DNA of 64,000 bases. It comes from Dehalococcoidia bacterium. Lineage in GTDB: Bacteria > Chloroflexota > Dehalococcoidia > UBA6926. Below the pieces are notes generated by a model. The model was not told the origin of the DNA, did not search any database, and saw nothing but the letters and a program-made list of their open reading frames with translations. Both the position numbers and the translations under genes were made by a program. Shown here piece by piece: positions 2,207 to 58,540 of this stretch (position 1 is its first letter; each line of letters starts with the position of its first letter). The DNA lies in the NCBI GenBank assembly GCA_965247995.1, contig OZ252041.1, positions 494,197 through 558,196 on the forward strand, read 5' to 3'.

Positions 2207-5210
<3,004 letters not shown>

Positions 5211-5309
5211 ATTAAAGACCCTCATGTTTGCCTCGTTCACGAACACTCTTGATCACCAACAAAGTTGGCCTGTTCACTTGTTAGGGCACCAGCTACCCGT
5301 CGGCTTCGG

Positions 5310-5384
<75 letters not shown>

Positions 5385-33799: not shown

Positions 33800-33869
33800 C
33801 CGGACCGGGGCTCATTGACCCCCTAGACCGCGGAACCTATCGTTGCCCAATCCTGGGGGTGGGGCGAAC

Positions 33870-36275
33870 ATGACTACCAACGGCACGAACGGGGCATCAC
33901 CAAAAGCGCTCGGCCACCTGCGCGTCATCGAGCTCGGTCAAATGCCGGCAGCTTATGCGGCGGGTTTCCTGGGCGGCCTGGGCGCAGACGTCATCAAGAT
34001 CGAGCCTCCCGGGGGCGACCCGAACCGCTCCCTCCCGCCCTTCGCCGGCGGTACCGCCGGTCCGGAACGGAGCATCCCGTTTCTAAATGCCAATCTGAAC
34101 AAGCGCAGCATCGTCCTCGACGTCAACGAAGCCGCAGACCGTAAGAACGTCAGGGCCCTTATTGACCGGTCAGACATTCTCATCGAGGCTACCCCTCCGG
34201 GCTACTTGGATTCCATCGGCCTCGGCGAAACCGCGCTTCGCGATTCCAATCCCGGCCTCGTCACCGTCTCCATCACCCCCTTCGGCCAAGACGGGCCATA
34301 CAGTCACTATCTCAGTGGGGACGCTATTGCCGCCGCCATGTCTGGCCTCATGATGAGCCAGGGAGACAACGAGCGCGCACCCGTCGTTCCCCCCTGCCAG
34401 ATGTCCTATCAACTCGCCGGCATCGAGAGCGCGTACCTCGCCGTCGCCGCGGTCAGGCATCGGCGGCGGACAGGATCGGGTCAACGGATCGACGTCTCCC
34501 TCCAAGAAGCCCTGACCTTCGCAACCGTGAGCACCGTGGCGCGCTACGGTCAACGGAGCGAGATCGCCACGAGACCCGGAGCCGCTGGCGGCGCATCCAA
34601 CATCTACCGCTGCAAAGACGGCAGATACGCCGCCCTGGCCATCTTCATGACAGGACACTGGCGCGTCCTCACCCGTGGTTGGATGGAGGACCCCATCCTG
34701 TCCGACGACGAATGGGACTCGTCTCAGTACCGCACCGACAACCAAGACGTCGCCCAAGTGCTCATCGGGCAGTTCATCGAGCAGTTCGACCGCGACGAGT
34801 TCGTCGCCGAAGCGCAGGCGCATAGATTGGCCTGTTCTCCGGTCAACACGTTCGAGGACTTCGTCACAAGTCAGCACATGCGCGAGCGCGGATGGTTCCG
34901 GACGGTCGACCACCCCATCGTCGGTCGGTACGAGGCCCCGGGCCCTCCGGCAACGCTGGAACGAACGCCGTTCGCCATCAGCCGCCCAGCGCCGTTGCTC
35001 GACCAACACCGGGACGAAATCCTCGCCGAACTCACGTCGGTTCCACCCCGAGGTCAGACCTCCGCAGCCGACCCGGCAGCGGCCCCCGACGCGCCGCTGC
35101 TCGAAGGGATTCGTGTCGCCGACATCACACGTGCGTTCGCGGGACCAATCGGGACCATGTTCCTGGGGTTCTACGGCGCCGAGGTCGTCAAGGTCGAGTC
35201 CACCAGCCTCGAGGCAAATCGCGAGCCGAACCGCCCAGTGTTCGCCGACCTCAACCGCAACAAGATCAGTTCCACGATCGATCTCCGCTCCCAGGACGGA
35301 AAGGACTTGTTCAAGCGCCTTGTCTCCAAGAGCGACGTGGTCGTCGATAACTTCAGCGCCGAGGTGATGCGGCGGTTCGGCCTCGGCTGGAACGACCTCA
35401 GACAGATCAAGCCGGACATCATCCAGATCGGCATGCCTGGTATGGGCTCTACCGGGCCCCTCAACTCGTGGGTCACCTACGGGAACCAGCTCCAGGCCTA
35501 CACCGGCCTCACGCTACTCTGGGGCCACCCGGAATCGGAGATGTCGGCCCACGCCAAAGGCGTCATGCCGGACTACGTCGGCGCAGCGTTCGTCGCGCTC
35601 GTCAGCGCCGCCGCTATCGAGTACCGAGACCGAACAGGTGAAGGTCAGTTCATCGAGATCAGTCAGGTCGATGGGCAAGGCGCGCTCATGGGACCACCAG
35701 TGCTCGACTACACGATCAACGGCAATTCGTGGAACTCCGTCGGCTACGACGAGCCGTTGACGGCGAACCTCGCGCCCTTCGGTGCGTACCCGTGCAGCCA
35801 CCCTGACAGTTGGATCGTCATCACCTGCGAGTCCAACCAACAGTGGGACGCGCTCAAGGCAGTGATGGGAGCTCCCACTTGGGCCGAGAATCCGGACTTC
35901 GCGGATCTCGCCGGACGCCGCGCCAACCGCGACGAGATCGACCACGAGATCGCCGAGTGGACTCGGGCCTTCTCTCCTCAACAAGCCCTGCGCCTACTCC
36001 AAGGCGGAAGCGTTCCTGCTGGCATCGCGATGAACGGCGAGCAGATGTTCAACGACATCCACTTGAGGCACCGCAGCCACTTGGTGGAAGTCGATGCACC
36101 CCCATGGGGTGTGCTGACCCATCAGGGCCTGCCCGCGATTCCCGCCAGGTCGAAGGCCTCCGCTGCCGTGCGCGCGCCCTGGATCGGCGACCACAACGAC
36201 TATGTATTGAAAGACATCCTCGAACTCTCCGATGACGCGATCAAAGCGTGGCAGGAAGCGGGAGTCATTCGCTGA
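33870..36275 (+). CDS. Class III CoA-transferase (CaiB/BaiF family), tandem two-domain fusion
   Basis: About 800 aa with two complete CoA-transferase III units (LRVIELGQMPAAYAAGFLGGLGADVIKIE... and IRVADITRAFAGPIGTMFLGFYGAEVVKVE...). Start moved to ATG 33870 behind a GGGGTGGGG RBS. Confidence 0.7.
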   Translation: MTTNGTNGASPKALGHLRVIELGQMPAAYAAGFLGGLGADVIKIEPPGGDPNRSLPPFAGGTAGPERSIPFLNANLNKRSIVLDVNEAADRKNVRALIDRSDILIEATPPGYLDSIGLGETALRDSNPGLVTVSITPFGQDGPYSHYLSGDAIAAAMSGLMMSQGDNERAPVVPPCQMSYQLAGIESAYLAVAAVRHRRRTGSGQRIDVSLQEALTFATVSTVARYGQRSEIATRPGAAGGASNIYRCKDGRYAALAIFMTGHWRVLTRGWMEDPILSDDEWDSSQYRTDNQDVAQVLIGQFIEQFDRDEFVAEAQAHRLACSPVNTFEDFVTSQHMRERGWFRTVDHPIVGRYEAPGPPATLERTPFAISRPAPLLDQHRDEILAELTSVPPRGQTSAADPAAAPDAPLLEGIRVADITRAFAGPIGTMFLGFYGAEVVKVESTSLEANREPNRPVFADLNRNKISSTIDLRSQDGKDLFKRLVSKSDVVVDNFSAEVMRRFGLGWNDLRQIKPDIIQIGMPGMGSTGPLNSWVTYGNQLQAYTGLTLLWGHPESEMSAHAKGVMPDYVGAAFVALVSAAAIEYRDRTGEGQFIEISQVDGQGALMGPPVLDYTINGNSWNSVGYDEPLTANLAPFGAYPCSHPDSWIVITCESNQQWDALKAVMGAPTWAENPDFADLAGRRANRDEIDHEIAEWTRAFSPQQALRLLQGGSVPAGIAMNGEQMFNDIHLRHRSHLVEVDAPPWGVLTHQGLPAIPARSKASAAVRAPWIGDHNDYVLKDILELSDDAIKAWQEAGVIR

Positions 36276-40920: not shown

Positions 40921-41661
40921 TTAGCTGGCCTCGCCGGCCCGAGCATTCGCCGTGAGCACCGCTCCGCCCGTTGACTCGGCTCGGGTGGACCACCGGGTCG
41001 CCACGAGAAATCCGCTGAACATCAACGCTCCCGCAACGATCTCGCCAGCGTAGAGATACTCGCCGTCGCCGAATCGCGTCAGCGTGCTCGCCGACGCGAT
41101 CACCAGTGCACCCGCCGCGATCAACATGTTTCCCCACATCCGGTTGATCAGCGTCTTCTTCCTCCAGAACAAGTATGCAGAGTAGATCGCCCCGCCGACG
41201 AGCGCCACGACACCAAAGATATTGAAAATCGGCGTCAACCCACGCACCCATGCTCCGTCCGCCATGATCTCCTTATACTGCCCGCTCAGCGGCATTGATG
41301 GGTCGAATCCGGACCCGTCAATCGGCACCGTCATGACTCCATAGAGACCCACTAGCGACCCAAACACCACGACCGCCAGGGTGGCCTTCGCGAATCGGGG
41401 GCGGCTGAGCAAATAGACCGTCCCTAACCCAATCCACGCCGCGTTCAAGAGCGCTCCGCTCGCGTACCAAGTGCGGAAGATCAGCCCGTTCCATGCAATC
41501 GACGAAGCAAGTTCCGCCATACTGCCAACCCCGAACAGCGCGAGCCCAATTCCCCAGAAGAGCAGCGCGGGCCTCCGTGACCGTGTCCACCGCGTGAACA
41601 CTAGGACGACGAAGGTCCCCATAATCGCGCTGGACACCAGCGGGAGGGCCGTCGTCATCAA
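40921..41661 (-). CDS. Polytopic membrane protein immediately upstream of ccmC (possible CcmB-like, unconfirmed)
   Basis: 246 aa, about 6 TM; the operon position suggests a heme-exporter permease, but the sequence does not obviously match CcmB. Confidence 0.4.
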   Translation of the reverse strand: MMTTALPLVSSAIMGTFVVLVFTRWTRSRRPALLFWGIGLALFGVGSMAELASSIAWNGLIFRTWYASGALLNAAWIGLGTVYLLSRPRFAKATLAVVVFGSLVGLYGVMTVPIDGSGFDPSMPLSGQYKEIMADGAWVRGLTPIFNIFGVVALVGGAIYSAYLFWRKKTLINRMWGNMLIAAGALVIASASTLTRFGDGEYLYAGEIVAGALMFSGFLVATRWSTRAESTGGAVLTANARAGEAS

Positions 41662-42930: not shown

Positions 42931-45591
42931 TTATACGCCTTCCGCCATCCGTCTGCCCGCTCGACTACCGGTTCTCCGTCTGCGTCCCACAATGGACGTG
43001 CCAACGAGTCCCATCGCCAGAAGTGCGACCAAACTGACATCTGTCGTCGAGCCACCCAGACATCCGCCTCCGGACTCCGTGGCCGGCGTCGGCGTGGCCG
43101 GGACCGGCGTTGCATCCTCGCCGACCAGCGTCCCCTCAGGGGCTCGCGCCTGCTCCGAACCCCCACCTGGACGCACCGCCCCCGGGGGCGCTACCTCGAC
43201 GGTCAACGTCCGCTCCGCAACCGTCGATAGTGCGTCGCTGAAAGCCGTGAGCGTCAACTTGTACAGCCCCGGAATGAGCGCTCCTGTCTCCCCAGCGGAG
43301 AGCGCAACGGCGAAGGCGTCCCCGGCCGCCTCCGCCTCGCCAGTCTTGATGACCCGGCCGGACGCCGGATCCGTGAAGACATACTGAACACCGTGCGTAC
43401 CCGGTCCCTGGACCATCGCCTCGATCCGGGCATCCGCACCGATTTCAACGAACGGGTCCGTCGATGACGTGATCCTTAACTGCTCCACCGAACCGAAGTA
43501 CCAATCGCCCGGTTTGAACGGATATGTCGGGTCGCGGAACGCTTCAAGCTCCGCGTACTGCGCCGGCGGGTCGAATCGTACGAGCTGGTACGGCCCGTTG
43601 CTGATGACCATCATGTTCTTGTCGGCGAACCACGCCCGCGCCGCGTCATACCGTGACTCGGCCTCCGCTGGCGTCACGAACGACCGCCCGCCCATCTGGA
43701 ATACCGCTTCCGGATAGCTTCCGTCCTGCTGGAATTGCCGCAACGTCCGGTCCACCAAGCGCGAGTCGCGGCTCTGGACCAAGCTGATCCACGGGACGCT
43801 GAACCGCCCAGCCGCGGTGTCGCTGTACGCCGCGCGGCGCTGCGCGAACACCAAGTCGTCCATCGCCGCGAGGATCTCCCACGGCATGCTCAACCCTGAC
43901 GGCACCGCATACTCCGCGATGTAATCGTCGACGAAGTGCCAGTAATCCACGTACGCCTCGATCCGGTTGTCGTCCAGCACCCGATACGCCTTCACCGTGT
44001 CCAACAGCGGCCGAGCAGTCACCGCCAATGCGAACTCAATCTGTGACTTCTCGTCGCTGTACGTCAGGTCGAACGACTGGTAGATCCCGTAAACAACGTC
44101 CGCCATTGTGATCGGCTCGCCGTGGTGCCACGTCGACTGGAAGTACTTGGAATAGTCGTACGTCACTTTGCTCGTCGCCGTCACACCCGCTCCGACACTC
44201 ACGAACGCTCCTGCCGCAGCGTCCCACCGCGCCGCGTCGGCTGGCACCTCGATCGTCCCCGTCGGGCCCGCCGTCTCAACCTCATACGCCGTCCGAAGCG
44301 GCATTGGAATCCCCGTGAATGGGTGCCGTGCGGTCGCCGAATCGTGCAGGTTCCGCCAGATATCGACGCTGTACACATCCCCAAGTCCGGCAACCGGATT
44401 CCACGTGCTCCGTTCGGTCCACACCCACAGGTTGCCGATGGTCACTTGATCCGCGCCCGGGACGAACGCCTCTCGGAGCGTCCACTGCGCCTTCGGCCCC
44501 GCGACAACGTCTTCCGTCACGCCTCGGATCTCCGTCTTAGCCGGGAAGGTATTCACCACGGTCGCAAGCCAGATCCGCACCGAGTCGTCGAGCGCGATCT
44601 GAGTCGCTTGCCGGTACAGCTCATCCCGCTCCGCCTGATCCGCAAAATCCCCGCGGAAGATACGCTGACCAACGTCGTCCAACATCGGGTTCTCGTACTG
44701 CCAGAATCCGATCTCTTGCCATCCCGGCATGTTTCCCAACCACGGCGCCGCCATCTGGTTGATGGTCGCGTAGTCATACCGTTCTGCCGCCCCTCGACCC
44801 CAACCTTCTGTGTACATGTGCCAGTCGAACTGCTGCGGGTCGGTCCCGTACACCGTGAGAATCGCGGGCGCGAACTGGTGATATACCGGGGATACCTGGA
44901 AACCTGCCGCAGCCAGCTCGGCACGGATGAGGTCGCCCACCTCCCGCCGCTCGTCCTCAACGCGGATCAAGAACTTGATCCGAATCGGGTGTCCGCCAAA
45001 GCTCCATACCCCGTCCACCATCTCTGCACCGGCCTTCTGCATCGCTGCCGAGATCGCCGCGCGCCCTCGCTCCGGGTCGTACCCGAGGTCCGCCTCGGCC
45101 AACATTGCCGTGAGGATCGTGTAGTCGAAGTCAAACGGGCTGACGTGCGTGAACATGGGCCGTGCCAGGCCCTTATAGATTTCCTGCGCGATGAAGTTCC
45201 GGTTGATCAAATGTTGCATCGCGCGCCGCACTTCGGGAATCGAGAAGGGGTTCAACTCCCCCTCCCGAGCAGGCGCCGGATTCAAGATCAACGAATTTGT
45301 CGACGCCGGCGCTTCGAACAACTGCACCCCATCGTCATCCCGCAGGTCCTGCGCCGCTTCCGTCTTCAGGTTGAAGACGTACATATCCATCGAATCGCGG
45401 GCAAGCTCCTGAGGAGCCAGGTCGACGTGGAACGAACGGAACACGATGCGGTCCGACGCCGGGCCCGGGCGGTCATGGGGCGGTTCGTAGTCGCTCGACT
45501 GCGCCACCGCGACACCGCCAACGGCCGCGACGGCCAGCAACCCCAGCGCAACGCGCGAAGCAGTACGAATCAGTCGCCTCACGGTCAACAC
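42931..45591 (-). CDS. ABC transporter substrate-binding protein (family 5) with long C-terminal extension and a C-terminal TM/Arg-rich anchor
   Basis: N-terminal signal peptide; SBP_bac_5 core; about 250 extra C-terminal residues ending ...GGGCLGGSTTDVSLVALLAMGLVGTSIVGRRRRTGSRAG. Confidence 0.7.
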   Translation of the reverse strand: MLTVRRLIRTASRVALGLLAVAAVGGVAVAQSSDYEPPHDRPGPASDRIVFRSFHVDLAPQELARDSMDMYVFNLKTEAAQDLRDDDGVQLFEAPASTNSLILNPAPAREGELNPFSIPEVRRAMQHLINRNFIAQEIYKGLARPMFTHVSPFDFDYTILTAMLAEADLGYDPERGRAAISAAMQKAGAEMVDGVWSFGGHPIRIKFLIRVEDERREVGDLIRAELAAAGFQVSPVYHQFAPAILTVYGTDPQQFDWHMYTEGWGRGAAERYDYATINQMAAPWLGNMPGWQEIGFWQYENPMLDDVGQRIFRGDFADQAERDELYRQATQIALDDSVRIWLATVVNTFPAKTEIRGVTEDVVAGPKAQWTLREAFVPGADQVTIGNLWVWTERSTWNPVAGLGDVYSVDIWRNLHDSATARHPFTGIPMPLRTAYEVETAGPTGTIEVPADAARWDAAAGAFVSVGAGVTATSKVTYDYSKYFQSTWHHGEPITMADVVYGIYQSFDLTYSDEKSQIEFALAVTARPLLDTVKAYRVLDDNRIEAYVDYWHFVDDYIAEYAVPSGLSMPWEILAAMDDLVFAQRRAAYSDTAAGRFSVPWISLVQSRDSRLVDRTLRQFQQDGSYPEAVFQMGGRSFVTPAEAESRYDAARAWFADKNMMVISNGPYQLVRFDPPAQYAELEAFRDPTYPFKPGDWYFGSVEQLRITSSTDPFVEIGADARIEAMVQGPGTHGVQYVFTDPASGRVIKTGEAEAAGDAFAVALSAGETGALIPGLYKLTLTAFSDALSTVAERTLTVEVAPPGAVRPGGGSEQARAPEGTLVGEDATPVPATPTPATESGGGCLGGSTTDVSLVALLAMGLVGTSIVGRRRRTGSRAGRRMAEGV

Positions 45592-45656
45592 CAGTTAGGA
45601 CCTCCGCCCAGGCATCGCTCGATCGTCATTACGAGAACTAGCGGGACCGGCAGCGG

Positions 45657-48185
45657 TCACGCCTCCGCCGCCCCGGAAGGCGTCCGGCGCCGCAACAATG
45701 CGATACCTGCAACGATCACCGCGAGCAACGCCGCAGCCCCTGCCGCGATCCCCACCGCGAGCATCGTCGTCATCAGCACTTCGTTGGAAGGACTCTCCGG
45801 CTCCGCCGCCTGCCGCGCCAGGTCCTCGACGCCACCCAAGTCCGACCGCAGATCGGCTTGGGCCGTCGCGAGGTCGGCGAGCGCGGTCTCCAAGGTCGTC
45901 AGCATCGCGGCCTGCGACTCGAAGTCCGCCGTCAGTTCGGACCGCAAACCCTCAGCGAAGTTGGGCCCCAGCGAGTCTTGCAACTCCTGGACCTGCTCCG
46001 CCGTGTCGCGAATGTTGTCGAATCCAAAGCTCATGAAATACGACGCTGGCGCCACGTTCCCTGATGCATCCAACACGAGCACGTCGTGAGCGCCCTCACC
46101 AGCAATCGGAATGAACAGATTCGCGGTGAACGTTCCCAGCGGACTCGTGCGTGCGGTCGACACAATGCTCCCGCTCAACTGAATAAACAGGTTCTGGTCG
46201 CCCTGGAAGTTGAACCCTTGAATCGTGACGGGCTGCCCACCAGCGCCCTCCGGCGGAGAGAGAAAGATCGACGGGTTCGGCACCTGCCGTTGGCGGGCGA
46301 ACGCGATCTTTTGGTTCGTTCCCTGGAATTCTCCCAACCGCGAGTCCGACCACACCAAGTACACATCCTCATCCGTCGCCGCGATCGAAAAGTAATCTCC
46401 GATGAACACGCCTCCAGGGAATCCCCAGTTCGGGTTCGACGATGAGTCCGTCACGCGCGCGTTCAGGCCAAAACTCTCGCCTTGGTCCTCCGACACCGCG
46501 TAGTAGATGTGGTACCGGAGCTCCGTCGGGTCATCACGCATGTCGCCCCACATCGCGTGCAACCGTCCATCGGGACTCGTCGCGATCGACGGGAAGAACT
46601 GCATGCGCCCGGTATCGTCATCGTTCACTTTCACAGGCCTGCGCCACGTCCGCCCCTTGTCTAGTGAGCGCACCACATATAAGTCCCCGTCGTCCGACGG
46701 CGCTCCAGCCGGGAGGCCAACGTACCCCACGTACACCTCGCCCTCGGGGCCCGTCGCCATCTGTGCGAAGCCAGAACCCCAGTAACGGAAGAACGTCGTG
46801 CGTGGCCTGAATCCCGGCTCCAGGAACGTGGACACCCTGCGGCCTCGGCTCCACGATTCTCCACCGTCCTCGGACGTCGATACGTACATCTGTGCGAGAC
46901 CCTCGAACGGTCCATCGTCGGTCGTATCCATCCACCCGACGTACACCGTGCCGTCCGGACCGACCACGGGTTGCGACCCCTGCACCAGCCTCAGCCGCCC
47001 CTCGATGACCTGGCCCCCCGGTGCGGTGTATGGGCTCTCCCCATTCTCGCCAACGACCCCAGAAGTTGACTCCTCTGCGGCGGGCCGCGTGCCGATCTCG
47101 AAGACTTGGCGGATCCGCGGACTGATCTCGATCGGATCAGACCACGTAAGCCCGTTGTCCCCGGACCGGACCAATTCGATCACCGTCTCGGTGATCGGCG
47201 ACCCAATGAACGGCAATTCGTCCGTGTAGAAGATGCGGTAACGGCTGATGAACTTGGTGTACGTCACATAGATCGTGTCCCGTGATGGGTCGTCGGGGTT
47301 CGGACCGATCGCCAACCACGGCTTGTCGAGGAAGGCTGCCGCGAGCGTCCCTCTTACGCGCCCCGTGGAATCCACAGCAAACTCCGTCTCGACCGTGCTG
47401 CGTGATGTCGGAATGCCGGTGGACCAGCTAAACCCACCGTCCGTAGAGGACCCCAAGGAGATGCTCGACACTTGAGCGGTCCCAATGATGTTCCCCAGGC
47501 TGAATTCTTCTGTGTCGATCGAGATGAAAACCATGTGCGCGTTGCCGTCGCTGTCGAACGCTACGACCGGGTCGCCCGCCGATGCGATTTCGTCCCTGGC
47601 GTGCTTCAACTGCACGGGACCGTCCCACGACTCGCCACCATCGATCGACACGTAGCTCGTGACCGCCGGGAAGTTGTAATCGATCATCCCAGCGATGAGG
47701 TGGTCGGGATCGTGGGGGTTGACCGCGATGTGCGGTTCGGTTTGTATCGGGGTTGCGCTGAAGTCGCGCGGGATGAGGATGTTCCGGCTGAACTTCGCAG
47801 ACGGGTCTCGGTACGGCACCAGCGTTCCTGCCGCGCCCTGTGTACTCACAGCCCCCTGTGGAGCCAATCTCGGGCCCGCCATCTCCACGGAGCCACCAAA
47901 GGCTGAGACGTCTGCACTAAGCGGGTTGAGTCCGTTCGCGACCAACCAGACCGAAGTGGACAGGTAGTCGACATACGGTGGCGTGAACTCGGTGCCCATA
48001 GCGCCAGCGGGGCTCGATATCCGGACATTCAGGTTGTTTAGGGTCGGGGGACCCCCGTAGGTCGGAGAGTCTTGCTTCCCGCTGAGGACCACGCCGCCGC
48101 CATCCGCAGCACCAGCAGTCCCCGACGCCAGCACACCAATGAGCAAGCCACTGACGGCCAAAACTGGCACGAACCAGCGTCTCAT
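45657..48185 (-). CDS. BNR/Asp-box repeat exported protein (sialidase-like fold) with C-terminal coiled-coil and TM/Arg-rich anchor
   Basis: Start MRRWFVPVLAVSGLLIGVLASGTAGA (signal peptide, GGAGGTGG RBS). Six or more S-x-D-G-G-x-S-W Asp-box repeats. C-terminus ...MLAVGIAAGAAALLAVIVAGIALLRRRTPSGAAEA. The longer track ORF (to 48590) is an upstream extension. Confidence 0.7.
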   Translation of the reverse strand: MRRWFVPVLAVSGLLIGVLASGTAGAADGGGVVLSGKQDSPTYGGPPTLNNLNVRISSPAGAMGTEFTPPYVDYLSTSVWLVANGLNPLSADVSAFGGSVEMAGPRLAPQGAVSTQGAAGTLVPYRDPSAKFSRNILIPRDFSATPIQTEPHIAVNPHDPDHLIAGMIDYNFPAVTSYVSIDGGESWDGPVQLKHARDEIASAGDPVVAFDSDGNAHMVFISIDTEEFSLGNIIGTAQVSSISLGSSTDGGFSWSTGIPTSRSTVETEFAVDSTGRVRGTLAAAFLDKPWLAIGPNPDDPSRDTIYVTYTKFISRYRIFYTDELPFIGSPITETVIELVRSGDNGLTWSDPIEISPRIRQVFEIGTRPAAEESTSGVVGENGESPYTAPGGQVIEGRLRLVQGSQPVVGPDGTVYVGWMDTTDDGPFEGLAQMYVSTSEDGGESWSRGRRVSTFLEPGFRPRTTFFRYWGSGFAQMATGPEGEVYVGYVGLPAGAPSDDGDLYVVRSLDKGRTWRRPVKVNDDDTGRMQFFPSIATSPDGRLHAMWGDMRDDPTELRYHIYYAVSEDQGESFGLNARVTDSSSNPNWGFPGGVFIGDYFSIAATDEDVYLVWSDSRLGEFQGTNQKIAFARQRQVPNPSIFLSPPEGAGGQPVTIQGFNFQGDQNLFIQLSGSIVSTARTSPLGTFTANLFIPIAGEGAHDVLVLDASGNVAPASYFMSFGFDNIRDTAEQVQELQDSLGPNFAEGLRSELTADFESQAAMLTTLETALADLATAQADLRSDLGGVEDLARQAAEPESPSNEVLMTTMLAVGIAAGAAALLAVIVAGIALLRRRTPSGAAEA

Positions 48186-48361
48186 CGCACCACCTCCAGG
48201 AGCAACATGGCGGATCAATTGTCCGGGACCCGCGTGCCGCCCCAACCACAGCCGCGATTCGCCGAATTCGCCGCGACCAGTATAGTGACGGAAGGAAATG
48301 ATAGGCGTGGGCCGGGTCGGCGTCGGACCGGTTGCGCCAACGGATAATCCGGAGGAAACGT

Positions 48362-50641
48362 ATGGGTGGTGGACTATTGGGCCTCGGCCTCGCACGAGGG
48401 CTTGCTCTGGCCGTCGTGAGCCTCGCGATCGCGGTCGCCTGCACGTCCGAGCCAACCAGTTCCTCTTCCGACACGACGCCCGTCTCGACGGAACCTGCCC
48501 CCGCAGCGCCGGCGGCCCCGACCCCTGAACCATCCCCAATAACGTCGGATACCTCCGATTCCGCATCAGCGGCCGCGACACCAGAGACACCGACCGCCAC
48601 TCCTACATCCGCGCCGGAGCCCGCAGCCACCGCAACCGCAACCAGAGTCCCCGCTACGCCGACGCCCACCCCCTCGCGCACCCCCGCCGCGGAGCCGGTG
48701 GCCTCGTATGTCAACGGGCTATACGGATTCTCCGTGCAGTACCCCGACACCTGGTCCGTCAACGAGACCGATAGCCCATCCCCCGTTGCCATCTTCGACG
48801 CCGGCACGGAAGACCTCAGCGTCCAGGCATACGTCCGCTACTACCGTGCGCGCCTGACCGCGTCAGAAGCCGCTGAACAGGAAATCGCCCCACTCGCTGG
48901 CCTGCCGAACTTCCGGACGATCATCGAGGCGCCGGTCACCCTTGAAGACGGCACCGAGACCTACCAGATCCTCTACGGCTTCGGCACCGGACAGGAAGAA
49001 CGTCGCGGCGGCCTGACCTTCGTTACCGAGGACACGCGAGCTACCGTCCTCCACGCCGTCGGGCCACGCCGCACGTATGAAGACAACCTGAACGGTATCG
49101 ACGCGTTCCTGAACAGCATCAAGATCGAACCCCAGCGCCCATTCGGAGTCGCGCGCGGGGACGCGCTCGTCCTGTCGCTGGACGACGGCCCTATCACTCT
49201 CGATCCCGCCATAGCAGTGGAGAGCCAATCAGGCCAGTACATCGGCCAGGTGTTCGACGGCCTCGTCGCGTTGGATGGCGATCTCAATGTCGTCTCCGAC
49301 CTGGCCGCGTCGTGGGAGGTCTCCGACGACGGCCTCACTTACACCTTCATTATCGACCCCGAGGCCACGTTCCACGATGGGACCGCTGTACTCGCATCGG
49401 ACGTCGTGTACTCCTGGGAGCGGGCAGCGGATCCGGATCTTGCCTCGTCCATCGCACGCACATACCTAGGTGACATCGTCGGGTTCGAAGAACGGGCTAG
49501 CGGCGCCACTGAGTCGATCAGTGGGCTGCAGGTTGTCAACGATCAGACGTTGACCGTCACGATCGACTCACCAAAGAGCTACTTCCTTTCTAAGCTCACA
49601 CACACGGCTGCTTCGGTCGTTCAGCGTGCGAATGTCGAGTCCGGAACGGGCACTTGGTGGCTCCAACCTGTCGGGACCGGGCCGTTTGCGGTCGCGGAGT
49701 GGATCCCTGATGTCGCGATGCACCTGGAACGCCACGCGGACTACCATGGACTGCTTCCGGAGGTCGAGAATGTCGTCTTCCGATTCCACGCGGGCGTCCC
49801 CTTGCGGATGTTCGAGGACGGTGAGATCGACGCCACTCGACTCTCTCTTGCCGAGTTCAACATCCTCGGTGACGAGCAGAGTCCGCTGCTGGACAACATC
49901 ACGACCCAACCACAGCTCTCCGTGAACTATCTCGGTTTCAATGCCGCCGTTGCCCCGTTCGACGATGTGAACGTCCGAAGGGCGTTCTTGCTCGCACTCG
50001 ACCGTCAGTCCATCGTCGAAGAGACGCTCAATGGGATCGGCGTGCTCGCGCACGGGTTCTTACCGCCCGACCTCCCGGGCTACGACCCGGATATTGAGGA
50101 GATCGTCTTCTCGCCCGCGGCTGCACTCGCGGCGCTCGAGTCCTCAAAGTACGGCAGTGCGGATGGCCTGCCGGAGATCACAATTTCGACACCCAGTCTT
50201 GCGCCTCACGTAATGGAAATGATCGCCATGTGGCAAGAACACCTTGGCGTCTCTGTCGGCATCGACTTGGACCCGGACACTAGCTACTTCTACGACTTCG
50301 ACAACGACAGGCCAGGCCTCTTTGTGTCCGGGTGGATCGCCGACTACCCAGACCCGCACAACTTCTTGGATGTCCTGTTCCATTCGACCTCGGACAGCAA
50401 CTTCGGCCGGTTCTCCAGTGCCACGGTCGATGACTTGCTGGTCCAGGCGCGTACCGAGACAGACGCGGACGAACGCATACGCCTCTATCGCACCGCCGAG
50501 CGGATCCTCGTCGCAAATGGCGCGGCGATTCCGCTCTGGTTCGGGCAGGTCAAGGTCTTGACCGCACCCCAGGTCCAGGGTTTCGTGATAGACGCCCAGG
50601 GCAGGATTGACCTCGCCAAGGTCACGCTCACTGAGCCCTAG
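48362..50641 (+). CDS. Lipoprotein: Pro/Thr/Ala-rich linker + unknown domain + ABC substrate-binding domain (family 5)
   Basis: Start MGGGLLGLGLARGLALAVVSLAIAVAC (lipobox) behind a GGAGGA RBS. About 100-aa low-complexity PTA linker, then an SBP_bac_5-like region (VARGDALVLSLDDGPITLDPA...). Confidence 0.7.
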   Translation: MGGGLLGLGLARGLALAVVSLAIAVACTSEPTSSSSDTTPVSTEPAPAAPAAPTPEPSPITSDTSDSASAAATPETPTATPTSAPEPAATATATRVPATPTPTPSRTPAAEPVASYVNGLYGFSVQYPDTWSVNETDSPSPVAIFDAGTEDLSVQAYVRYYRARLTASEAAEQEIAPLAGLPNFRTIIEAPVTLEDGTETYQILYGFGTGQEERRGGLTFVTEDTRATVLHAVGPRRTYEDNLNGIDAFLNSIKIEPQRPFGVARGDALVLSLDDGPITLDPAIAVESQSGQYIGQVFDGLVALDGDLNVVSDLAASWEVSDDGLTYTFIIDPEATFHDGTAVLASDVVYSWERAADPDLASSIARTYLGDIVGFEERASGATESISGLQVVNDQTLTVTIDSPKSYFLSKLTHTAASVVQRANVESGTGTWWLQPVGTGPFAVAEWIPDVAMHLERHADYHGLLPEVENVVFRFHAGVPLRMFEDGEIDATRLSLAEFNILGDEQSPLLDNITTQPQLSVNYLGFNAAVAPFDDVNVRRAFLLALDRQSIVEETLNGIGVLAHGFLPPDLPGYDPDIEEIVFSPAAALAALESSKYGSADGLPEITISTPSLAPHVMEMIAMWQEHLGVSVGIDLDPDTSYFYDFDNDRPGLFVSGWIADYPDPHNFLDVLFHSTSDSNFGRFSSATVDDLLVQARTETDADERIRLYRTAERILVANGAAIPLWFGQVKVLTAPQVQGFVIDAQGRIDLAKVTLTEP

Positions 50642-50769: not shown

Positions 50770-51009
50770 TTGGGTACTCGTGCCTTCATCCTCATCGAGA
50801 CCTCGGTCGGCAAGACACAAGACGTCGTCACAGCGCTTCGGGGCGTCTCCCAGATTAGGTCGGTCGACGCCGTCACCGGCCCGTACGACGTAATCACGGT
50901 TATCGAGGCGCCCGATCTCAACACGGTAGGGAACGTCGTCACCACGAGCATTCACACCATTAGCGGTGTCCTGCGCACCGTTACCTGCCTGGCCGTCAAC
51001 CTCAGCTAG
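50770..51009 (+). CDS. Stand-alone RAM-domain (Lrp/AsnC C-terminal ligand-binding domain) protein
   Basis: 79 aa; AFILIETSVGKTQDVVTALRGVSQIRSVDAVTGPYDVITVIEAPDLNTV has a RAM βαββαβ pattern; TTG start behind a GGGGG RBS; immediately upstream of the ACAD array. Confidence 0.55.
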   Translation: MGTRAFILIETSVGKTQDVVTALRGVSQIRSVDAVTGPYDVITVIEAPDLNTVGNVVTTSIHTISGVLRTVTCLAVNLS

Positions 51010-51076
51010 CGCTGCTCCCCGCCACGTACCCGGCTCACCCGGGCGGGCTGACGCCACTTCCCTCAAGGAGGGTCTC

Positions 51077-52264
51077 ATGGACTTCCAGTTTGCGCCCGAA
51101 GATGAAGCGTTCCGACAGGAGGTCCGTGACTTCGTCCGCTCCGAATGGGACCCAAAGGGCCACGACGTCGTCGGGGCCTCAATCGCCTCCTACGATCTCC
51201 ACACCCATGAGGCCATCGAGCTCGTCAAACAGTGGCAGAAGAAGTTGGCCGACAAGGGTTGGTGGACGCTCCACTGGCCTACCGAGTTCGGCGGGATGGC
51301 AGCCCCCATCAGCCGCCAACTCGTCTACCGCGAAGAGTTATCGTACTGGGGAGCCCCCGCGACCGGCGCAAGCGACCTCGTCAGCCCGGTGCTGATGTTC
51401 CACGGCAACGATTGGCACAAGCAGGAGTTACTCCCGCACTACGCCACCGCGGAGATTGAGTTCTGCCGCCTGTTGTCAGAGCCCGGCTCGGGTTCCGACC
51501 TCGCCTCCGTCACGACGAAGGCCGTCCGCGACGGCGATGACTTCGTCGTCTCCGGTCAGAAGATCTGGACCAGCATGGCGGAGATGGCGGACTACGGGCA
51601 GGCCATCGTCCGCACCGATCCCGAGGCTGCCAAGCACCGCGGACTGACCTATCTGATCATCGACATGAAATCCCCCGGCATCGTCCTCCGACCGCTGCAC
51701 GACATGCTCGGGCAACGCCGGTGGAGCGAAGTCTTCCTCGACGAGGTCCGCGTGCCCGTTCGCAACATGGTCGGTGAGTTGAACCGTGGCTGGTACGCGA
51801 CGATGACCCACCTCAGCTTCGAACGGTCGAACATCGGCGGACCGGCCCGGATGCTCCGGTTCCTCGAGGAGTTCACCGATTGGGCCCGGACCGCGAAGGT
51901 GAACGGCACCCCGCTGCTGGACGACGTCCGGCTCCGCCACAAGCTCGCGGACTACCGGTTGCAGATCGAGGTCGCCCGCATGATTTCCTACCGCGTCGCC
52001 TGGATGCAGACCAAGGGCGAAATCCCGGTCAAGGAGTCCTCGATGACGAAGAACTGGGGCGACGTCCTCCATCAGGGCATCTACCGTGGCCTCGCGTCCG
52101 TCCTTGCCGACGCCGGACAACTCCGGCCCGAAGACCCCAAAGCCCCTGCGAACCGCTTCCTCGGCGTCAACGCCTTCCTCAGCACCGGTCTCAGCATCGG
52201 CGGTGGCACACGCGAGATCCAGAAGAACATCATCGCGCAGCGCGCCCTCGGCCTGCCACGCTGA
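51077..52264 (+). CDS. Acyl-CoA dehydrogenase family protein (paralogue A, subtype I)
   Basis: MDFQFAPEDEAFRQEVRDF...; LSEPGSGSDLAS; MTHLSFERS; C-terminus GGGTREIQKNIIAQRALGLPR; ATG behind an AAGGAGGG RBS. Confidence 0.8.
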   Translation: MDFQFAPEDEAFRQEVRDFVRSEWDPKGHDVVGASIASYDLHTHEAIELVKQWQKKLADKGWWTLHWPTEFGGMAAPISRQLVYREELSYWGAPATGASDLVSPVLMFHGNDWHKQELLPHYATAEIEFCRLLSEPGSGSDLASVTTKAVRDGDDFVVSGQKIWTSMAEMADYGQAIVRTDPEAAKHRGLTYLIIDMKSPGIVLRPLHDMLGQRRWSEVFLDEVRVPVRNMVGELNRGWYATMTHLSFERSNIGGPARMLRFLEEFTDWARTAKVNGTPLLDDVRLRHKLADYRLQIEVARMISYRVAWMQTKGEIPVKESSMTKNWGDVLHQGIYRGLASVLADAGQLRPEDPKAPANRFLGVNAFLSTGLSIGGGTREIQKNIIAQRALGLPR

Positions 52265-53704: not shown

Positions 53705-54904
53705 ATGGATTTCCGACTCTCAACCGAAGACGAGGCCTTCCGACAAGAGATTCGTGACTTCGTCCAACGCGAGTGGAACAACCACGGCTACGACCTCGTC
53801 AGCACCATGAACACGTCCTATCACCTCGACGACGTGGACGCGCTCAGCCTCCAGCACGACTTCGAAAAGAAGCTCGTCGATAAAGGCTGGTGGACCATGC
53901 ACTGGCCCACCGAGTTCGGTGGCCAGGCCGCCTCCGTCGAGCGGCAACTCGTCTACCGCGAGGAAATGGCTTACCGGGGCGCTCCGTCTTCCATGGGCGG
54001 AGGCCTCGTCGCACCCCTCCTCTGGCTCCACGGGACCGAGCGGCAGCGCAACCAGTTCCTCCCACAGCTTGCGAACGCAGACCTCGAGTTCGCTCAAGGG
54101 TTCAGTGAACCAAACGCCGGCTCCGACCTCGCCAACCTCCAGACCCGCGCCGTCAAAGACGGCGATGATTTCGTCATCAACGGCCAGAAGATCTGGACCT
54201 CCACCGCCCACCACCCCCTCGCCCACTGGGGCCACATGCTCGTCCGCACCGACCCAGACGCCGTCAAGCACCGCGGCATCTCGTACCTGTTCATCGACAT
54301 GCACAGCCCCGGCATTTCGCTCCGCCCTTTGTATGACATGCTCGGACGCCGGCGCTGGAGCGAGTGGTTTCTGGAGGACGTGCGCGTCCCCGCAGAAAAC
54401 CTTATCGGCGAGCTGAACCGCGGTTGGTACGCGGCCATGACCACCCTCAGCTTCGAGCGCGGCTCCGTCGACATCCCTGCCAGCCTCCTCCGAGGCCTCG
54501 AAATCATCACGGACTACCTCCACAAGACCCGCGTCGACGGCAAACGACTCACCGACGACCCGCTGGTCAAGAACACCCTCGCCGACCTACGGATCGACAT
54601 GGAACTCGGCCGCATGCTCGCCTACCGCGTCGCTTGGCTCCAGGCCAAAGGACAAGTGCCGGACATGGAACCGTCCATGGCCCGTGTGTGGGCTGGCGAA
54701 GCCACCCAGAAGGTCTACCGCACCGGCGCCCGCCTCATGCGCGACTTCGGGACCATCGTCCCCGGAGGCCCCAGACGCTGGTCGCCCCTCGGCGGCTTCT
54801 TTGGCGCAAACCACTACCTTTCCACCGGCCGCACCTTCGGCGGCGGCGCGAAAGAGATCCAGCGCAATATCATCGCCCAACGCGGACTCGGCCTCCCCAG
54901 GTAA
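53705..54904 (+). CDS. Acyl-CoA dehydrogenase family protein (paralogue C, subtype I)
   Basis: MDFRLSTEDEAFRQEIRDF...; TTLSFERGS; C-terminus GGGAKEIQRNIIAQRGLGLPR. Confidence 0.8.
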   Translation: MDFRLSTEDEAFRQEIRDFVQREWNNHGYDLVSTMNTSYHLDDVDALSLQHDFEKKLVDKGWWTMHWPTEFGGQAASVERQLVYREEMAYRGAPSSMGGGLVAPLLWLHGTERQRNQFLPQLANADLEFAQGFSEPNAGSDLANLQTRAVKDGDDFVINGQKIWTSTAHHPLAHWGHMLVRTDPDAVKHRGISYLFIDMHSPGISLRPLYDMLGRRRWSEWFLEDVRVPAENLIGELNRGWYAAMTTLSFERGSVDIPASLLRGLEIITDYLHKTRVDGKRLTDDPLVKNTLADLRIDMELGRMLAYRVAWLQAKGQVPDMEPSMARVWAGEATQKVYRTGARLMRDFGTIVPGGPRRWSPLGGFFGANHYLSTGRTFGGGAKEIQRNIIAQRGLGLPR

Positions 54905-55880: not shown

Positions 55881-57095
55881 ATGGATTTCAAACTCACGAC
55901 AGAAGAAGAGACCTTCCGGCAGGAGGTCCGCCAGTTCATCAGCGATCACTGGGACCCAAAGGGCTTCGACGCCCACACCCTCAACGTCCGCGCCTACGAC
56001 TTCGATAACCCGGACTCCCGCGCCCACGACGACGAGTTCGTCAAGAAGCTCGTAGAAAAAGGCTGGTACACGATGTCCTGGCCCAAGGAATGGGGCGGCA
56101 TGGACGCCCCGATCGGCATCCAGATGGTCTACGGCCAGGAGCTCTCCTACGCCGGCGCACCCGCGGGCTCACCAAGCTCGAACATCACCGGCGCACTCAT
56201 GTTCCACGCCTCGGACGAGATGAAGAACTGGTTCCTCCCGCGCATGGCCCGGAACGAGGTCGATTGGGCCCAGGGCTTCTCCGAGCCCAACGCCGGCACC
56301 GACCTCGCTAGCCTCCAGACCCGTGCCGTCGAGGACGGCGACGACTTCGTCGTCACCGGACAGAAGATCTGGTCCTCCGGCTCCCACTTCGCCAACTGGT
56401 ACCACGTCCTCGTCCGCACGGACCCGTCAGCGCCCAAGCACCGCGGCATTTCCTACCTCGCCATGCAGCTCAAGGACGAGAACGGCAATCAGACGCCCGG
56501 CGTCACGCTCAGGCCCCTCTACGACTTCTTCGGCCGACGGCGCTGGAATGAGGTCTTCATGGACGAGGTCCGCGTCCCCAAGAGCCGCATGATCGGCGAA
56601 CTCAACCGCGGCTGGTACGCAGCCATGACCACCCTCAACTTCGAGCGCACGGGTGGCGCTGCCGCCTCCGCAGGGAGCCTCGGCGTCTTGGACCGGTTCG
56701 TGGCCACCATGCGCCGCACGAAGTTCCAGGGCGAATCCCCCCTCAAGGACCCGCTCGTCCGCCACAAGCTGGCCGATCTCCGCATTACGCTCGAGACCGA
56801 CCGCATGCTTGCGTACCGCGTCGCTTGGATGCAGGCCAAAGGCGAGGTGCCCCAGGCCGAAGGCGCGATCTCCGGATACCGCACCCAGCTGACCGCCAAG
56901 TTCCACACCTGGCCAACGCTGGCCAAGATCGTTGGCGACTACAGCGTCCTGCTGAAGGGCGAGAAGCGTGCGCCCGGTAACGGCATCTACGGCACCAACA
57001 ACGCGCTCGCCATGTCCATCGGGTTCGGCGGTGGTGGCGGCATCCTCCTTGGCCCCAACATCATCGCCCAGCGCGGATTGGGCTTGCCCCGCTAG
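55881..57095 (+). CDS. Acyl-CoA dehydrogenase family protein (paralogue D, subtype II)
   Basis: MDFKLTTEEETFRQEVRQF...; TTLNFERTG; C-terminus GGGGGILLGPNIIAQRGLGLPR. Confidence 0.8.
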   Translation: MDFKLTTEEETFRQEVRQFISDHWDPKGFDAHTLNVRAYDFDNPDSRAHDDEFVKKLVEKGWYTMSWPKEWGGMDAPIGIQMVYGQELSYAGAPAGSPSSNITGALMFHASDEMKNWFLPRMARNEVDWAQGFSEPNAGTDLASLQTRAVEDGDDFVVTGQKIWSSGSHFANWYHVLVRTDPSAPKHRGISYLAMQLKDENGNQTPGVTLRPLYDFFGRRRWNEVFMDEVRVPKSRMIGELNRGWYAAMTTLNFERTGGAAASAGSLGVLDRFVATMRRTKFQGESPLKDPLVRHKLADLRITLETDRMLAYRVAWMQAKGEVPQAEGAISGYRTQLTAKFHTWPTLAKIVGDYSVLLKGEKRAPGNGIYGTNNALAMSIGFGGGGGILLGPNIIAQRGLGLPR

Positions 57096-57160: not shown

Positions 57161-57328
57161 CCCGACCCGCGCGGTCCATATCCGATGGATCGAACAAATG
57201 GGGGACGCTGCGTTTTTGGGCCCGATCCTCGGGTCTGCTTTACGCACTATTGGCCCGATGCTATCGTGCGGTGTTCTCGCCACCGATCTGTTCGGACCCG
57301 AGCAGTATCTCGGGCAAGGGGGTATCAC

Positions 57329-58540
57329 GTGGACCTTCGTTTATCAGCAGAGGACGAGGCCTTCCGGCAAGAGTTGCGCGCTTTCCTTCAGTCCGAATGG
57401 GACCCAAAGGACTTCGACGCGTACTCCATGAACGTCTGGTCGTACGACTTCGACAATCCCGCCGCCCGTGACCACGCCCAGGACTTCCAACGCAAGCTCA
57501 TCGACAAGGGTTGGTGGCTCATGTCCTGGCCCAAGGAGTTCGGCGGTGAGGACGCCCCCATCAGCCGCCAGCTCGTCTACTCGGAAGAGATGGCCTATCA
57601 CAACGCTCCAGCCAGCCAACCCCAGGGAAACGTCGCCGGCGCGATCATGATCCACGGCACCGACTGGGCGAAAGAAACGTTCCTCACGGGCATGGCCGAC
57701 AACACCATCAATTGGGCCCAAGGCTTCTCGGAGCCGAACGCTGGGACCGACCTCGCAAACCTCCAGACACGAGGGGTCGAGGATGGCGACGACTTCGTCG
57801 TTACCGGACAGAAGATCTGGTCCTCCGGATCGCACTTCGCCAATTGGTACCATGTCCTCGTCCGCACGGACCCGTCGGCGCCCAAGCACCGCGGCATTAC
57901 TTACTTGATGATGCAGTTGAAGGACGATCAGGGCGACCAGATGCCCGGCATCACCCTCCGCCCGCTCTACGACATGCTCGGCCGCCGGCGTTGGAACGAG
58001 GTCTTCATGGATGAAGTCCGCGTGCCGAAACGCCAGATCATCGGTGAGGTGAACCGCGGCTGGTACGCCGCGATGACCACCCTGAACTTCGAACGCACCG
58101 GCATCGAGGGGGCGACGCGGCTCATCGGCGTCCTCGACCGCTTCATCGCCGTCATGCGCCGGACCAAGTTCAATGGCGAAAGCCCGTTGAGTGATCCCGT
58201 CCTCAGAAACCGCCTCGCCGACGCGCGCATCACGCTCGAGTCGGACCGCATGCTCGCCTACCGGGTCGCCGCCATGCAGGCCCGCGGAGAGGTGCCGGAG
58301 AAGGAAGGCATGATGTCCGGCCTCCGCGCCCTCCTCACCGCGAAGAACACCTTCTGGCCCGCGCTCGGCCACGCCATCGGCCCATACGCCGCCCTCCTGA
58401 AGGGGGAAAAGCGCGCGCCCGCGAATGGGATCTACGGCACGAACTACGCGCTGAGCATGACGACCGGATTCGGTGGCGGCGGCGGGATCCTGCTCTCACC
58501 AAACCTGATCGCCCAGCGGGGCCTCGGTCTACCGCGTTAA
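57329..58540 (+). CDS. Acyl-CoA dehydrogenase family protein (paralogue E, subtype II)
   Basis: GTG start behind an AAGGGGG RBS gives (M)DLRLSAEDEAFRQELRAF, homologous to the other N-termini; the track ORF starts earlier, at 57185. TTLNFERTG; C-terminus GGGGGILLSPNLIAQRGLGLPR. Confidence 0.75.
   Translation: MDLRLSAEDEAFRQELRAFLQSEWDPKDFDAYSMNVWSYDFDNPAARDHAQDFQRKLIDKGWWLMSWPKEFGGEDAPISRQLVYSEEMAYHNAPASQPQGNVAGAIMIHGTDWAKETFLTGMADNTINWAQGFSEPNAGTDLANLQTRGVEDGDDFVVTGQKIWSSGSHFANWYHVLVRTDPSAPKHRGITYLMMQLKDDQGDQMPGITLRPLYDMLGRRRWNEVFMDEVRVPKRQIIGEVNRGWYAAMTTLNFERTGIEGATRLIGVLDRFIAVMRRTKFNGESPLSDPVLRNRLADARITLESDRMLAYRVAAMQARGEVPEKEGMMSGLRALLTAKNTFWPALGHAIGPYAALLKGEKRAPANGIYGTNYALSMTTGFGGGGGILLSPNLIAQRGLGLPR

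Follow-up and report, generated by a model that had tools for sequence, protein, structure and literature searches.

A 64,000-nucleotide stretch of contig OZ252041.1 from a Dehalococcoidia bacterium (the whole of it is called the window here) encodes protein A, an exported family-5 substrate-binding protein that ends in a compact tail built around a single cysteine (the GGC tail). That this tail is a real, modular, and conserved signal centred on its cysteine is close to certain. The balance tips modestly towards protein A being an Opp/Dpp-type substrate-binding protein of ATP-binding cassette (ABC) uptake whose tail is a Dehalococcoidia form of the Cys-type sorting signals found at C-termini, and chances are about even, arguing by analogy, that the tail is lipidated and cleaved in the manner of MYXO-CTERM proteins.

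The tail of protein A consists of GGGC, a seven-residue spacer closed by aspartate, an 18-residue hydrophobic core, RRRR, and 13 further residues to the end. Its cysteine, Cys844, is the only one among 886 residues, and the median number of ectodomain cysteines is zero in both the protein A family and that of its neighbour, protein B. The same arrangement—[SG]GGC, six to eight residues closed by Asp or Glu, a short helix, and three to five arginines—ends 37 of the 120 best protein A homologues. Gly-Gly-Cys is invariant across 31 aligned tails (consensus GGCGxGxxTADxxLxxxLxLGLVGxxRRRR), the distance from cysteine to Arg cluster is 23–29 residues with a median of 24, and an acidic residue stands at position +7 or +8 from the cysteine in 35 of 45 tails. 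Scored against a tail profile built without the window tail and its nearest orthologue, the end of protein A reaches 38.9 bits, compared with at most 8.9 for 200 shuffled versions of it and at most 8.6 for the tails of other open reading frames (ORFs) in the window. Hydrophobic cores also separate the classes: the median is 15 residues in GGC tails versus 22 in plain helix anchors in the protein A family, and 19 versus 26 in the protein B family, a pattern followed by the window's own cores of 18 residues in A and 25 in B. The short cores of the GGC tails fit a transient, removable helix.

The GGC tail recurs on the unrelated protein B family (P0126, P0129–P0135, P0137, and P0140; loci L002, L005–L012, and L041). 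In about ten marine Dehalococcoidia genomes (~2 Mb), orthologues of protein B, unlike the window's own, end in SGGC[SG]TGNATAD, a helix, and RRRRR, and the adjacent orthologue of protein A is GGC-tailed as well. When P0003 (A family) is compared with P0126 (B family) by BLASTP, the tail is the sole significant match (E = 6e-9). A third carrier, a DUF11-domain protein fragment ending PSGGCGLGGPAADMGLIGLVAIGLLGL, emerged when 1.84 billion cluster representatives were searched with the tail profile. As an independent client it carries little weight, because its gene is a fragment and the locus is crowded with insertion sequences. The tail is thus found on three unrelated families (SBP5, BNR, and the DUF11 fragment), with one or two clients per locus.

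Within each family, anchors are exchanged. The 120 best homologues of protein A comprise 37 with cysteine and helix, 51 with cysteine and no helix, 16 with a plain helix, and 16 with no tail; for protein B the corresponding numbers are 22, 0, 95, and 3, the last class including partial sequences. Of the 16 A members that lack a tail, about nine begin with what looks by eye like a lipobox, an N-terminal cysteine and then a Pro/Thr linker (four by a strict pattern), and the tailed members have signals of the signal peptidase I type. The protein A family alternates an N-terminal lipobox with several kinds of C-terminal tail, and to this extent a useful lead came from the remark in an earlier sequence-only note on this DNA (the original prediction) that a C-terminal instead of a lipobox anchor is unusual for a substrate-binding protein. 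The window locus consequently holds three anchoring solutions: a lipobox in protein C, the divergently encoded neighbour; a plain helix in protein B; and the Cys-type tail in protein A. Cys-type tails are confined to records that bear the label Dehalococcoidia or Chloroflexota (for protein A, in 22 of 80 loci), while Caldilineaceae have plain helices on both A and B, and Deinococcota, Spirochaetes, and Chloroflexia have none.

Three other endings were seen in these families. One protein of the B family (P0136) has a GGC tail in which Gly-Cys is replaced and the rest kept, SSNGLSTGNATADMAIVGLLALGVIGAVQWSARRRRN, which still scores 41.9 bits against the tail profile; the signal may be decaying there, or the protein may serve as a natural test of the cysteine requirement. 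A second Cys-type tail reads GG[AFLI][FS]SC[NS], a spacer of 10–14 residues ending in Gly-Asp, a helix, and RRR. It is carried by B-family members P0144, P0183, P0187, P0201, P0216, P0225, and others (loci L024, L051, and L066), is taken as a distinct sub-variant because it scores poorly against the GGC profile, and in P0144 has a GGAFSC that resembles the GGAFCC of Myxococcus TraA. Finally, the 51 helix-less protein A homologues end in GGGGFSC[SAG]GPPL plus 0–7 residues. These carriers of GGGGFSCSGPPLxxx (P0019–P0118; L003, L014, L016–L019, L021, L023–L025, L027–L028, L030, L045, L064, and L066) combine an export signal of the signal peptidase I type with essentially a single cysteine, the one in this motif, and lack a lipobox. 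In L003 a hidden helix is excluded, since only 20 nt separate the stop codon from the following gene. No NCBIfam model matches this end.

Protein A belongs to the family-5 substrate-binding proteins by its Pfam score, by its cluster C fold, and by its matches in the PDB to OppA, NikA, and DppA. Pfam SBP_bac_5 (PF00496) scores 88 bits against a cut-off of 32.4, covering profile positions 143–353 only, and the best PDB match is Thermococcus kodakarensis OppA (7fi3, E = 1.3e-19), followed by NikA, AppA, and DppA. The AlphaFold model has a mean predicted local distance difference test (pLDDT) score of 84; in it, the signal-peptide helix spans residues 4–25, residues 811–853 have pLDDT below 50, the disordered linker shows at residues 811–849, and the terminal helix covers residues 850–875. 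There are more than 950 homologues, for the most part from metagenome-assembled genomes (MAGs) of Chloroflexota, and in homologues the signal peptide is laid out in the same way.

Of the curated sorting-signal models, the one that best matches the related tails is MYXO-CTERM (TIGR03901.2), which finds 27 of the 31 at E ≤ 10 (best 5.4e-6); seven reach E ≤ 6e-4, the estimated equivalent of its 20-bit cut-off, one of them being P0003 with 26 bits. JDVT-CTERM matches 21 of the 31 at E ≤ 10 (best E = 2.2e-5), CGP-CTERM gives weak matches to seven, and Synerg-CTERM and others are weak. The Haft preprint describes four Cys-containing tripartite signals, each linked to a glutamic intramembrane protease of the CPBP/Rce1-like type. 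The suggestion of an uncharacterised class of signal does not hold, as Cys-type C-terminal signals are a known class and the lineage and the motif variant alone are new. A Cys-type C-terminal tail is not previously reported in Chloroflexota: Chloroflexi are unmentioned in both the Haft preprint and PMC11980579, and no paper in the library searched joins Chloroflexi with these signals.

On the proposed mechanism, the short C-terminal helix and the RRRR stop-transfer cluster would hold the protein A precursor in the cytoplasmic membrane after export, with the GGGC motif probably placed at the outer face beneath a flexible linker of ~40 residues, a topology suggested by the sequence and the model. 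By analogy, the single cysteine, Cys844, may then be lipidated at the outer face, and a glutamic-type intramembrane CPBP/Rce1-like protease would cut just after it, removing the helix and Arg tail. Mature protein A would remain tethered to the monoderm membrane by a C-terminal lipid, which would do the same job as the N-terminal lipobox in protein C and in other A-family members. MrtX cleaves MYXO-CTERM in a Cys-dependent manner, with prior lipidation proposed but not demonstrated (Sah and colleagues, PMC11980579). Dehalococcoidia are monoderm, and their marine radiation has lost peptidoglycan (PMC10284905); a membrane-lipid tether would be sensible for a binding protein in this group.

Several results weigh against this mechanism. 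The window tail gives no TIGR03901 match even at E ≤ 10 and lies below every NCBIfam sorting-domain cut-off; it is one residue shorter after the cysteine, finds no JDVT-CTERM match in either NCBIfam scan, and has as its single related match the C-terminus of a myxosortase-dependent phytase model. The reference MYXO-CTERM system operates in diderms, where clients pass on to a type II secretion system, a step that does not exist here. No CPBP/myxosortase gene occurs in the window (Pfam on 13 ORFs, and a motif scan of ORFs of at least 150 residues that returned a spurious match only), and none lies beside 24 GGC-tailed loci in 1.6 Mb of flanks. Clients are sparse, with one in the window, at most two per locus in relatives, and no other GGC-tailed ORF in the same 1.6 Mb. 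The search of 1.84 billion cluster representatives gave 14 matches at E ≤ 0.001, nine of them A-family fragments and only three of them proteins outside families A and B, from a 37-position profile that holds too little information to count clients in such a library; there may be very few kinds of client, or the profile may be tied too closely to this lineage. The 31-tail profile run against a 5.8-billion-protein word index, whose candidate step favours short proteins, returned six matches, mostly short fragments, some of them from LPXTG and PEP-CTERM proteins.

The motif scan for CPBP proteins covered the window and 83 loci, its candidates being compared afterwards with NCBIfam. Three CPBP ORFs in related loci were considered as myxosortases and rejected, since they are generic CPBP proteins scoring 20–28 bits, where the NF040914 cut-off is 100, and the genomes that encode them do not carry the tail.

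A reading with perhaps half the weight given to lipidation and cleavage is that both tails are permanent type I anchors from which nothing is cut, the cysteine of protein A being used otherwise at the membrane surface, for instance in an intermolecular disulfide that pairs protein A with a second copy, a partner, or an S-layer protein, or as a site of acylation without proteolysis. The missing processing enzyme in the window and related loci, the position of the window tail under all curated cut-offs, and the few clients found would then be expected; many family members do use plain helix anchors, and no GGC tail in the A family has a longer core than the window's 18 residues. Permanent anchoring is harder to reconcile with the class as a whole, in which a median core of 15 residues is too short for a stable span (plain anchors have medians of 22–26) and in which motif, spacing, and acidic residue are conserved across unrelated proteins; these tails, moreover, match profiles for which cleavage is either shown (MYXO-CTERM, by MrtX) or predicted (JDVT-CTERM).

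Less probable again is that the GGC tail is truly cleaved, but by a rhombosortase or rhomboid, an archaeosortase/exosortase-like enzyme, or a new family, in which case the anchoring chemistry would differ from that of MYXO-CTERM. The Gly-Gly(-Gly) run in the motif recalls GlyGly-CTERM, no myxosortase-type gene lies near any client, and in more than 14,000 representative proteomes the myxosortase core model had members in no lineage but Myxococcota and Bradymonadales (Haft preprint). Set against this, the NCBIfam matches to the 31 tails (35 families in all) are headed by Cys-type models, with GlyGly-CTERM, PGF-CTERM, and exosortase-type models outside the 25 most frequent, and the motif of GlyGly-CTERM or PGF-CTERM abuts the helix, whereas a spacer of seven or eight residues follows the cysteine here.

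The original prediction had a different emphasis: that a new sorting signal, specific to the lineage and made of a hydrophobic helix and then RRR(R)T(G/P)S, is common to proteins A and B. Much of its description is sound. Both proteins are exported with N-terminal Sec-type signal peptides (cleavage in A at ...GGVAVA/QS and in B at ...GTAGA/AD), both end in a single hydrophobic segment and then an Arg cluster, and the sequences quoted for these ends are correct, apart from the fact that protein A continues ...RAGRRMAEGV past the quoted part. They are the only proteins among stop-to-stop ORFs of at least 100 residues in the 64 kb that combine an exported ectodomain, a C-terminal helix, and a basic tail. 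The BNR protein was rightly identified, with a true length of 842 rather than 843 residues. What does not stand is the shared motif. Genome-wide enrichment was replaced as the measure by comparison across orthologues and protein families, and RRR(R)T(G/P)S occurs in one of 53 helix tails of the A family (the window's own) and two of 117 of the B family. Orthologues of protein A with 70–87% identity have RRRWRQRG, RRRRRERSL, RRKRRGRV, RRRRTK, or RKRRK in its place. The related string RRRTP[ST]G.AEA survives only among the five nearest orthologues of protein B, which says little because these are 75–100% identical overall. Compared by BLASTP, A and B have no significant similarity at any point, not even in their tails, and the tail of protein B scores 0.9 bits against the GGC profile. 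The positive-inside rule predicts a basic cluster after any anchor helix whose N-terminus is outside. The two tails are alike by eye, and that likeness is, on the sequence comparison, chance; a shared signal of this kind is very improbable. The proposal of a tripartite, sortase-style signal holds for protein A, where the pre-helix GGCLGGSTTD proves informative, and fails for protein B, which has a plain anchor.

Protein B has a Pfam BNR_2 score of 40 bits, its PDB matches are sialidases, and its AlphaFold model (pLDDT 74) comprises a sialidase-like beta-propeller and an immunoglobulin-like (Ig-like) domain, connected through a long helical stalk to a membrane helix. P0121 is 100% identical to it. 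It has no cysteine at all; the NCBIfam scan of its tail found the helix/Arg part only, below cut-off (GVDTG at 18.4 bits against 29, PVV at 16.6 against 27), and no pre-helix signature of the known sorting signals. Judged by these features, protein B in this organism is predicted to be a type I membrane protein with a permanent, long, plain helix, and not a client of the proposed sorting system, in contrast to its orthologues in marine relatives. The stalk, of ~70 residues (aa ~722–794, 45804–46022), lies between the Ig-like domain and the membrane helix, and in the model its helical form suggests a possible role in oligomerisation. An abundant putative S-layer protein of Dehalococcoides, DET1407, is also annotated BNR/Asp-box (PMC6646388, PMC5102406), a likeness at the level of annotation.

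Features of proteins A, B, and C in the window, with nucleotide positions, strand, and the basis of each assignment
Feature	Position	Strand	Basis
Protein A gene, exported family-5 substrate-binding protein, 886 aa	42931..45591	-	ORF and Pfam
Protein A signal peptide, aa 1-30, MLTVRRLIRTASRVALGLLAVAAVGGVAVA/QS, signal peptidase I type	45502..45591	-	sequence reading
Protein A substrate-binding fold (cluster C / SBP5-like), aa ~45-700	43492..45459	-	Pfam, model, PDB matches
Protein A Ig-like beta-sandwich, aa ~706-801	43189..43476	-	secondary structure of model
Protein A Pro/Thr/Ala/Gly-rich disordered linker, aa 802-840	43072..43188	-	pLDDT and composition
Protein A signature motif G841-G-G-C844-L-G-G-S-T-T-D851	43039..43071	-	tail alignment; DNA and translation checked
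Protein A short hydrophobic segment of tail, V852-G869, 18 aa	42985..43038	-	model and core measurement
Protein A Arg cluster R870-R873, predicted cytoplasmic side	42973..42984	-	sequence and alignment
Protein A extreme C-terminus, non-conserved, TGSRAGRRMAEGV	42934..42972	-	different in each orthologue
Protein B gene, exported sialidase-like BNR beta-propeller, 842 aa	45657..48185	-	ORF and Pfam
Protein B membrane helix, aa 807-831, 25-aa hydrophobic core, no Cys, no signature motif	45693..45767	-	
Protein B predicted cytoplasmic tail, RRRTPSGAAEA	45660..45692	-	kept only in five closest orthologues (75-100% identity)
Protein C, divergent SBP5, lipobox-like N-terminal Cys (IAVAC), Pro/Thr/Ala linker, PsbP-like domain	48332..50641	+	

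Protein C, which the original prediction correctly described as a divergent third SBP5 protein with a lipobox-like N-terminus and a long linker, is the third member of a cluster with the B-A pair that is conserved in L001–L003. A scan of genome collections found 80 species-level loci with the protein A family, in 75 of which the B gene is followed by the A gene. The trio of divergent SBP5 lipoprotein (C), propeller (B), and large SBP5 protein (A) is widespread (window 42931–50641; loci L002–L083). Closest among these loci are those of Dehalococcoidia MAGs, with 80% identity; one isolate name, ETNP2_MAG_72, suggests an Eastern Tropical North Pacific source. Elsewhere the family occurs in Caldilineaceae, Chloroflexia, Deinococcota (e.g. 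Calidithermus chliarophilus DSM 9957), Spirochaetales, Nitrososphaerota, and Acidimicrobiaceae. In relatives the B-A pair usually has genes for an Opp/Dpp permease and ATPase next to it, and such genes flank the cluster in L002 and L003, but none lies within 10 kb on either side of the protein A gene in this organism. A sialidase-like propeller is a puzzling constant companion for a peptide-type uptake system. Just downstream of the protein A orthologue in two marine Dehalococcoidia genomes, in L002 (13371–14357) and in L008, is a gene for a collagen-like lipoprotein with ~200 residues of Gly-X-Y repeats. Two unannotated neighbours in L002, of 328 and 118 residues, were considered and set aside: one is a collagen-like lipoprotein, the other a small soluble protein, and neither is kept across GGC-positive loci.

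The remainder of the window contains a complete 23S rRNA gene (2207–5212, +) followed by a tRNA gene (5310–5381, +). Neither a 16S nor a 5S rRNA gene occurs in the 64 kb, so the rRNA genes are unlinked in this genome. At least five paralogous acyl-CoA dehydrogenase-like genes (6410–7621 on the minus strand; 50966–52264, 53705–54904, 55881–57095, and 57185–58540 on the plus strand) share a near-identical ending, ...NIIAQRGLGLPR, and together with a CoA-transferase gene at 33843–36275 they suggest an expanded repertoire for the oxidation of fatty acids or organic acids. A 246-residue polytopic membrane protein with no Pfam match (40921–41661, -) is encoded directly upstream of a cytochrome c assembly (CcsA-like) gene, an arrangement retained in L001.

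Cys-type signals and their CPBP/Rce1-like proteases have been recognised only recently, so far in diderm Myxococcota, some Proteobacteria, Synergistota, and Thermococcales. If the proposed sorting signal is real in function, it would bring such a system to monoderm marine bacteria that are abundant, uncultured, and often devoid of a wall for sortase attachment, and it would explain how nutrient-binding proteins are tethered in Dehalococcoidia. A wider proposal is offered only tentatively: that marine and subsurface Dehalococcoidia have a Cys-based C-terminal anchoring pathway of their own, with narrow clients (chiefly the substrate-binding protein and propeller of one Opp-type locus) and an enzyme that is possibly not a myxosortase, the helix-less GGGGFSCSGPPLxxx end being a different, undescribed signal on the same sole cysteine. 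The protein A family forms a natural comparison series—N-terminal lipobox, plain helix, cysteine with helix, and cysteine without helix—which could help to find the lipid transferase and to define what the protease recognises. There is also a consequence for annotation, as most GGC tails fall under the NCBIfam cut-offs and would go unlabelled.

Among known systems, MYXO-CTERM (TIGR03901) is the closest in architecture. Like the GGC tail, it is a tripartite signal at the extreme C-terminus, with a Gly-rich motif holding an invariant cysteine, a short helix, an Arg cluster, and a disordered linker ahead, and the GGAFCCGTTAD of TraA resembles both the GGC..G..TAD and the GGAFSC variants of families A and B. 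The differences are several. The generic MYXO-CTERM motif is GCGC, whereas the GGC tail has a single cysteine in a fixed GGC and a fixed spacer of seven or eight residues closed by Asp or Glu; MYXO-CTERM genomes hold dozens of clients, the GGC-tailed apparently few; its hosts are Myxococcota and Bradymonadales, and the relatives carrying GGC tails are Dehalococcoidia MAGs, monoderms with no outer membrane or type II secretion step. MYXO-CTERM proteins are served by MrtX, MrtC, and MrtP; for the GGC tails, no myxosortase was found in the window or the related loci.

JDVT-CTERM (NF033191/NF033192, with MrtJ, in beta- and gamma-proteobacteria) shares with the GGC tail a single invariant cysteine, few clients, and an acidic residue before the helix. 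It differs in lineage and in a nearly invariant Asp-Pro before a Leu-rich helix, which GGC tails lack, and the MrtJ gene adjoins that of its single target, whereas no protease gene adjoins a GGC client. CGP-CTERM (TIGR04288, with the archaeomyxosortase MrtA, in Thermococcales) is again of the Cys-type, in a single-membrane cell, and is preceded by a linker rich in Ser/Thr; the solved structure most similar to protein A, OppA, comes from Thermococcus kodakarensis, of the same lineage. In CGP-CTERM, however, Cys-Gly-Pro abuts the helix within a 20-residue signal, while protein A has GGC, a seven-residue spacer, and no proline. GlyGly-CTERM, which gives no match to the window tail, and PGF-CTERM differ likewise in spacing, since in the GGC tail a spacer parts the motif from the helix. 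As the original prediction noted from the sequence, neither LPXTG nor PEP-CTERM signatures are present in the A or B tail; related tails give weak matches below cut-off.

Lipobox anchoring by Lgt and Lsp, the route for substrate-binding proteins in monoderms, has the same predicted outcome as the proposed processing of protein A, namely a tether at the outer face through a lipidated cysteine and a flexible linker, and it is apparently used by protein C and by the lipobox-bearing members among the tail-less A homologues. The anchor lies at the opposite end of the polypeptide, however, and removal of a C-terminal helix would need a different protease. The closest precedent for the exchange of anchors is provided by the 'choice-of-anchor' families of NCBIfam (Haft). 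Neither protein A nor protein B reaches any of the named models (protein B scores 15.6 bits against choice_anch_O, with a cut-off of 125), but the principle is the same, with homologous ectodomains carrying C-terminal anchors that are interchangeable by lineage.

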